From Escherichia coli (GTDB lineage Bacteria > Pseudomonadota > Gammaproteobacteria > Enterobacterales > Enterobacteriaceae), in NCBI RefSeq assembly GCF_003334405.1, contig NZ_QOWM01000009.1: a stretch of DNA of 64,000 bases; one strand, written 5' to 3'. The number at the start of each line of letters is the position of its first letter. The first letter of the stretch is position 1. A program made the position numbers and the translations under genes. A model generated the notes under the pieces. It saw only the letters and a program-made list of their open reading frames with translations. It did not search any database and had not been told where the DNA came from. Below, one piece after another: positions 38,693 through 38,798 of the stretch.

Positions 38693-38798
38693 TCAAGGTT
38701 ATCTCCCGCAATGGTTTATCGTTGCGGGAGTTGCCTGAAGCGCTGGATGCTGTCGGAGCTTTCTCCACAGCCGGAGAAGGTGTAATTAGTTAGTCAGC

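Follow-up and report, generated by a model that had tools for sequence, protein, structure and literature searches.

The window, as we call the whole 64,000-nucleotide stretch of Escherichia coli DNA analyzed here, carries the junction of damX and dam on its plus strand. The damX open reading frame occupies positions 37406 to 38692 (annotated in NC_000913.3 at 3516020-3517306 on the minus strand) and ends in a TAA stop codon at 38690-38692, while dam occupies positions 38799 to 39635, with its ATG at 38799, leaving an intergenic region of 106 nt in E. coli. A 301-nt probe over the site matched the damX-dam junction in 5426/5426 complete E. coli genomes, consistent with the stated source; of the 5429 junction matches in all, one was on a plasmid record instead of a chromosome. 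The window is K-12-like and differs from MG1655 by 1 base over 2401 nt, inside damX. Because the two sequences are identical across the damX-dam junction, RNAtag-seq data from MG1655 apply directly to the window, with coordinates converted as window position = 3554712 − MG1655 coordinate. The promoters of dam are located far upstream and within damX, in a long multi-promoter operon. The cell requires Dam in low, closely controlled quantities, and the protein is made from the distal end of this operon. Knowledge of the transcript ends at the damX-dam junction helps to explain how neighbors encoded on the same message come to very different levels.

A GC-rich hairpin lies between the two genes. 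The hairpin sequence reported in the initial annotation, CTCCCGCAA-TGGTTTATCG-TTGCGGGAG, was found in the window as described, although its position proved to be 1 base further left, at 38703-38730 and not at 38704-38731. The 9-bp stem claimed for it is correct as a perfect inverted repeat, with G/C at six positions, and is GC-rich, as in an intrinsic terminator, but the stem folded by RNAfold is longer: a U·G and a G-C pair extend the perfect repeat to 11 bp. The core hairpin thus consists of a 5′ arm (CUCCCGCAAUG, 38703-38713) that begins 10 nt downstream of the damX stop codon, a 6-nt loop (GUUUAU, 38714-38719), and a 3′ arm (CGUUGCGGGAG, 38720-38730), all on the plus strand. Its folding energy of −19.5 kcal/mol (z score of −4.9) compares with a mean of −7.1 kcal/mol for shuffled sequences, and none of 200 shuffles was equally stable. 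An outer helix (UCA·GGU/GCC·UGA) surrounds the core and yields an extended stem-loop at 38693-38738 of about −25 kcal/mol, in which internal loops, one of 3 nt and one of 2 nt, interrupt the 17 pairs (11 + 6). Both for the whole intergenic region and for its variable part alone, the minimum free energy is −25.0 kcal/mol on the plus strand versus −18.8 kcal/mol on the minus strand; the 106-nt region as a whole folds into two hairpins (z score of −5.7).

Inverted repeats of this kind are not rare in the surrounding DNA. Over the 64 kb of the window, perfect stems of at least 9 bp with loops of 3 to 12 nt were counted at 15 sites, in 26 stem/loop combinations, versus a mean of 2.75 combinations in shuffled sequences. 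Since such repeats are enriched and mostly nonrandom across the window, a lone 9-bp repeat is not extraordinary, and the above-chance status of the damX-dam hairpin rests on its location, conservation, and mapped 3′ end, not on the repeat alone. Other long perfect inverted repeats, with stems of 10 to 13 bp, are located at 49875-49905, 50720-50749, 20199-20226, and 26550-26579; the first of these contains GCCGGATGCG and has a REP-like look.

The core stem is followed by TTGCCTGAAG. As the initial annotation had observed, there is no U-tract: the flank TTGCCTGAAGCGC has 3 T in its first 8 nt, and the segment of approximately 7 to 8 nt directly 3′ of the stem in which an intrinsic terminator carries its uridines (tail UUGCCUGAAG) has 3 U in the first 8. 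A consensus terminator scan with a threshold of at least 5 T in 8 nt found the trpS terminator and a hairpin inside dam, and the damX-dam hairpin was not among its hits. The suggestion that the hairpin is a partial terminator is therefore unsupported by the sequence, and the hairpin is most likely not an efficient terminator. Other identities for the element were tried and rejected. An antisense terminator was discarded because the minus strand also lacks a T-run and folds more weakly. A 78-amino-acid open reading frame that crosses the hairpin (38557-38793) is spurious, as intergenic lengths differ between species by non-multiples of three (106, 115, 117, 65 to 78, and 180 nt). Membership in a REP-like repeat family was ruled out by the occurrence of the element at one place per genome in the 5426 genomes, even at an E value of ≤10. 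A cmscan search of positions 36000 to 41000 against Rfam (E ≤ 10) returned no hit in the intergenic region, its only three matches being chance snoRNA/lncRNA hits within the dam and rpe coding sequences, and NC_000913.3 has no annotated feature at the hairpin.

The initial annotation had predicted transcript ends at about 38735 and had named the lack of any mapped 3′ end or processing site at the hairpin as the outcome that would speak against its proposal. Published data contain such an end, close to the predicted position, and the proposal thus withstands its own test. In an earlier RNAtag-seq data set, a minus-strand 3′ terminus is listed at MG1655 positions 3515968-3515980, with the dominant position 3515970 corresponding to window position 38742 (PMC10687069). 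In a newer RNAtag-seq data set from LB cultures, it is listed at 3515966-3515980, with the dominant position 3515972 corresponding to window position 38740 (PMC10687069). The peak limits of this terminus zone are thus 38732-38746 on the plus strand of the window. The terminus was detected in six of six libraries, three for each of the two independent data sets, with adjusted P values of 1e-9 to 1e-24; it is labeled "Alternative primary in TU, damX" in TRS Supplementary Data 2 and 3, and the TRS table shows the same damX-dam hairpin as the fold belonging to it (PMC10687069). The end is 10 to 12 nt past the core stem and 2 to 4 nt past the extended stem, within a peak 15 nt wide. The TRS read-through statistic at the terminus is intermediate, at 0.85 and 0.46 (PMC10687069). 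No end at 35159xx/35160xx appears in the accessible part of the Term-seq tables of Adams et al. 2021, from which we judge the terminus to be a modest signal as far as that part goes, and the SMRT-Cappable-seq and TERMITe tables list no end at the damX-dam site. A 3′ end internal to damX (window position 37950; MG1655 3516762/3) is present both in the TRS RNAtag-seq data and in the accessible part of the Adams et al. 2021 Term-seq data, where the end at 3516762 is scored as not Rho dependent. The damX-dam 3′ end is therefore already catalogued in a public table, without comment there, and literature searches for a damX/dam terminator and for dam promoters returned nothing specific.

Within E. 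coli, the hairpin is a single-copy element in all 5426 complete genomes. Alleles were counted as exact matches to the 40-mer at 38697-38736. The K-12 type, with the reference stem, is found in 2979 genomes. It is followed by a loop change, T38715G, that lengthens the stem (809 genomes), by G38721A, which converts the U·G pair into U-A (609 genomes), by G38721A combined with T38723C, which creates one A·C mismatch (323 genomes; the 35-nt core segment folds at −15.7 kcal/mol), and by T38731C, just beyond the stem (223 genomes). All pairs are thus kept in four of the five commonest alleles, representing 85% of the genomes, and the fifth (6%) has the single mismatch.

To place the hairpin in a wider context, 80 Enterobacteriaceae dam loci were compared; all 120 matches listed by a Dam protein search were near relatives, at least 86% identical. 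Variation in the intergenic region is confined to the stretch from the damX stop codon to the dam leader; the remainder is invariant. A homologous hairpin is limited to Escherichia, Intestinirhabdus alba (12-bp stem and 13-nt loop), the Citrobacter freundii group (14-nt loop), and, in altered form, Salmonella; the outer helix is kept in Escherichia only. In Salmonella, where the intergenic region spans 180 nt (positions 1321-1500 of locus L005 and 392-571 of locus L086), the ancestral hairpin is split by an insertion of approximately 100 nt that brings two additional hairpins, and a 7-bp helix (GGCUGUG/CACAGCC) still closes the region as a whole. In total, 62 of the 80 species have no hairpin; their variable region is shorter than 35 nt and without substantial structure, and the conserved leader begins 8 to 28 nt after the damX stop codon. 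Unrelated stable hairpins are found at the same spot, just after the damX stop codon, in Phytobacter/Kosakonia sp. S29 (loci L016, L017, and L026), Phytobacter massiliensis, and Kluyvera georgiana, and the region folds at −20 to −31 kcal/mol in loci L016, L017, and L026 as well as in loci L024 and L075 (Kluyvera).

Where the homologous hairpin is present, its arms behave as paired RNA. For the alignment, each arm was placed position by position and a fixed linker was set between the two, as MAFFT applied to the raw hairpins misaligned the 3′ arms. Escherichia, Citrobacter, and Intestinirhabdus together provide seven distinct arm sets, in which 96.4% of the cells are paired, versus at most 52% in slid controls, and the covariation score was reached by 3 of 500 shuffles. 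Compensatory changes are present at two pairs (the closing pair, as C-G, G-C, or U-A, and pair 11, as G-C or U-A), every one-sided change in an arm gives a G·U pair on the plus strand, and the plus-strand RNA folds better than the minus strand by 6 to 10 kcal/mol (−19 versus −8.7 kcal/mol in Citrobacter). Taken together, these three properties point to a sense-strand RNA structure and not to a DNA site. Loops of 4 to 14 nt are found on conserved arms, which argues against an operator bound by a dimeric protein; with substitutions that are G·U compatible on the plus strand only, a protein operator on DNA was rejected. The absence of the hairpin from most related genera argues against an essential role in dam control, and any benefit it confers must be dispensable, given the number of related species without it. 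Judging from these sequence comparisons, selection acts at least weakly on the hairpin as a structure of the sense-strand RNA, yet the hairpin is dispensable.

The same comparisons bear on the likeliest of the alternative explanations, under which the hairpin would be a neutral relic without a selected function, left by a hairpin-bearing insertion that the ancestor of Escherichia, Citrobacter, and Salmonella acquired, and exonucleases would stall at it only incidentally. Its absence from 62 of the 80 species, its position in the sole variable part of the intergenic region, the Salmonella insertion within it, and the E. coli allele with a stem mismatch are all consistent with such an origin. 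However, the compensatory changes at two pairs, the restriction of other substitutions to wobble pairs, the stable but unrelated hairpins that take the place of this one in Phytobacter/Kosakonia, P. massiliensis, and Kluyvera, and the closing helix retained by Salmonella speak against a relic, and we regard this explanation as rather unlikely.

The interpretation given in the initial annotation is supported in part: among its three options (a partial terminator, an RNase processing site, or a stabilising 3′ structure), the last fits best. Many steady-state 3′ ends in E. coli are located directly after stable stem-loops without U-rich tails, and such U-poor stem-loops protect the RNA against PNPase and RNase II after termination has occurred downstream (Dar and Sorek 2018, PMC6061677). 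The damX-dam hairpin lacks a U-tract and resembles this class in geometry and composition, with a stable stem-loop (−19.5 to −25 kcal/mol) directly upstream of the steady-state 3′ end and a low uridine content after the stem. We therefore favor, with a probability of roughly 0.55, the interpretation that the hairpin, a stem-loop without a U-tract, stops 3′ exonucleases and in this way sets a stable damX-terminal 3′ end.

The proposed mechanism is as follows. Because the dam promoters are located upstream of damX or inside it, RNA polymerase would have to read through the hairpin to transcribe dam. Some of the resulting transcripts would end or be cut further downstream, whether in the dam leader, at sites of endonuclease attack, or at a hairpin in dam that resembles a terminator. 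Such transcripts would be trimmed back by 3′-to-5′ exonucleases (PNPase and RNase II), to which the hairpin in the damX-dam mRNA would present a physical barrier, and the enzymes would stall a few nucleotides 3′ of the structure. A stable RNA would remain, ending at approximately 38740-38742 and with damX intact, such that the damX message, or the aroK-aroB-damX message, could outlive the dam part of the same transcript. We infer that this longer survival of damX would help hold Dam low relative to DamX. Sequence downstream of the hairpin is G-rich, with a C/G ratio of 0.5 to 0.8 in 78-nt windows over 38740-38860 and above 1 only from 38900, and thus gives no indication that Rho loads immediately past the hairpin.

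The stability of the stem also raises the possibility that the hairpin acts on transcription itself, either by weak, hairpin-only intrinsic termination or by stabilizing a pause; a fraction of the polymerases would then stop approximately 10 to 12 nt past the stem, and transcription of dam would be reduced directly. The stem is rich in GC, and its stability equals that of terminator stems. Hairpin-dependent pauses of the his type typically occur 10 to 12 nt after the stem, which is the distance of the mapped 3′ end from the core stem, and C38741/G38742 fits the pyrimidine (−1)/G (+1) of the pause consensus. Moreover, Dar and Sorek considered that U-poor stem-loops could be inefficient intrinsic terminators (PMC6061677). 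Set against this are the 3 U in the 8 nt after the stem, the failure of the terminator scan to find the hairpin, and the position of the end, since canonical ends lie 7 to 9 nt past the stem. The pause consensus also calls for a G at −10, which the site lacks, and paused nascent RNA should be a very small fraction of total RNA 3′ ends. We consider termination or pausing at the hairpin improbable as the source of the mapped end.

Endonucleolytic processing, by RNase III in the extended stem or by RNase E beside it, would separate the damX and dam messages and leave the mapped end as the cleavage product, as might be supposed from an intercistronic structure in a long multi-promoter operon, from its 17 pairs, and from an AU-rich single-stranded stretch at 38783-38798 that could serve as an RNase E entry site. 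RNase III, however, normally needs a near-continuous duplex of roughly 20 bp and cuts inside the stem, whereas here the helix is shorter, is interrupted by internal loops into 11 + 6 pairs, and has the mapped end outside it. Known RNase III and RNase E sites explain only ∼5% and ∼2% of the TRS ends, respectively (PMC10687069). Processing is the explanation to which we give the least credence.

Downstream of the hairpin, the sequence changes in character. The dam leader (38739-38798, plus strand) starts where the variable hairpin region stops, is nearly invariant in the 80 Enterobacteriaceae loci, and over its approximately 60 nt is conserved beyond what coding would require. It can fold into two mutually exclusive hairpins, one at 38747-38771 (GCUGU-C-GGAG/CUCC-ACAGC) and the other at 38756-38781 (GCUUUCUCC/GGAGAAGGU). 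No column-wise covariation was detected for either hairpin, as the sequence varies too little and the positions of the bulges differ, and neither has an Rfam match; individual lineages (Atlantibacter and Pseudescherichia) retain one or the other. The leader also contains an upstream open reading frame, MLSELSPQPEKV (38747-38785, ATG to TAA), that stops 13 nt short of the dam ATG. At the aligned position, 81/81 sequences have a start codon (ATG in 73, GTG in 6, and TTG in 2), and the encoded peptide is lost where indels shift the frame. This reading frame is absent from the small-ORF table of Stringer et al. 2021. The dam gene itself has no Shine-Dalgarno sequence at a usable distance; GGAGAAGGUG lies 16 nt before the ATG, where a hairpin sequesters it. 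Just ahead of the dam ATG, each of the three frames is closed by a stop codon within TAATTAGTTAG (38783-38793). In two Franconibacter loci (L058 and L064), the conserved upstream ATG is in frame with dam without an intervening stop codon, and Franconibacter Dam could therefore carry a 17-residue N-terminal extension. In Yokenella (L006), the stop codon of the upstream open reading frame overlaps the dam ATG (ATGA).

The leader additionally contains an invariant mini-hairpin, AGCG-CUGGA-UGCU (38739-38751), with a GGA in its loop, and further GGA motifs are found at 38755 and 38773. Most of the other genera have CAGGAUG as their loop motif, which is the repeat motif of CsrB. Binding of CsrA at the GGA motifs of the leader is a possibility raised by these motifs; a literature search for a link between CsrA and dam found no paper.

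Two further hairpins are located inside dam. The first (38827-38852, plus strand; GGGCAGGGGG-CAAGUA-UCCCCUGCUU) covers codons for WAGGKYPLL, folds in 81/81 sequences at −15 to −23 kcal/mol, and has nearly fixed synonymous sites (GCA GGG GGN … CCC CTG). A 3′ terminus at MG1655 position 3515853, or window position 38859, maps 7 nt past it (PMC10687069). The second (38913-38948, plus strand), which covers codons for GSVFLNTDF, was the top hit of the terminator scan and is the only one of the two with a U-rich tail, TTCTCGTTAT, downstream of its stem at 38913-38938. A 3′ terminus at 3515766/7 (window positions 38945/38946) maps 7 to 8 nt past this stem (PMC10687069). Covariation at synonymous sites of the stem comprised 48 compensatory cells, a value reached by none of 500 shuffles, and at most 12 were obtained with a slid partner; among 72 distinct sequences, G-C and A-U versions were counted at 33/18 and 32/25. 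The hairpin is lost in Phytobacter and Kosakonia. On account of the covariation and the mapped 3′ end together, the second hairpin looks like a conserved intragenic terminator or attenuator, and it is a candidate source of the transcripts that would be trimmed back to the upstream hairpins.

The damX-dam junction thus has three hairpin-associated 3′ ends within about 210 nt, and the two in dam lend support to the exonuclease-barrier reading of the first hairpin. No description of this cluster or of the conserved leader was found in the literature searched. The practical value of the damX-dam hairpin is mainly as a pointer to these other elements of the junction, and the dam leader and the terminator-like hairpin in dam are more interesting than the hairpin that led to them. 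A broader scheme can be drawn in which the damX-dam hairpin, the leader (with its conserved upstream start codon, its stop codons in every frame, its GGA motifs, and no usable Shine-Dalgarno sequence for dam), and the two intragenic hairpins form a translation-coupled attenuator by which Dam would stay scarce and its level would be separated from that of DamX. Poor translation of dam would set off the intragenic terminator, and trimming of the RNA as far as the damX-dam hairpin would spare damX, so that the hairpin would be the upstream boundary of a multi-part region of posttranscriptional control. We regard this scheme as speculative and doubtful in its entirety.

For the damX-dam hairpin itself, the reading as an exonuclease-blocking stem-loop can be compared with three known kinds of element. 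REP/BIME sequences of the malE-malF type, which stabilize the upstream mRNA, are likewise intercistronic palindromes, and protection of the preceding cistron against 3′ exonucleases is expected of the damX-dam hairpin as well. The latter, however, is present in a single copy per genome and does not resemble the REP consensus. Intrinsic terminators, such as that of trpS (window positions 42225-42246), share with it a GC-rich hairpin of similar length and stability and a nearby 3′ end. The damX-dam hairpin, in contrast, has neither a U-tract nor an upstream A-tract, and its end is located 10 to 12 nt past the stem instead of 7 to 9 nt. The closest match is the class described by Dar and Sorek, with which it has in common a terminator-like stem energy, a tail that is not U-rich, and a 3′ end that is precise at steady state and located immediately past the structure. 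It differs from that class in being located inside an operon, between cotranscribed genes and not at the end of a transcription unit, and in lacking a downstream enrichment of C over G (rut-like). With these differences, the damX-dam hairpin is an ordinary example added to a well-described class.
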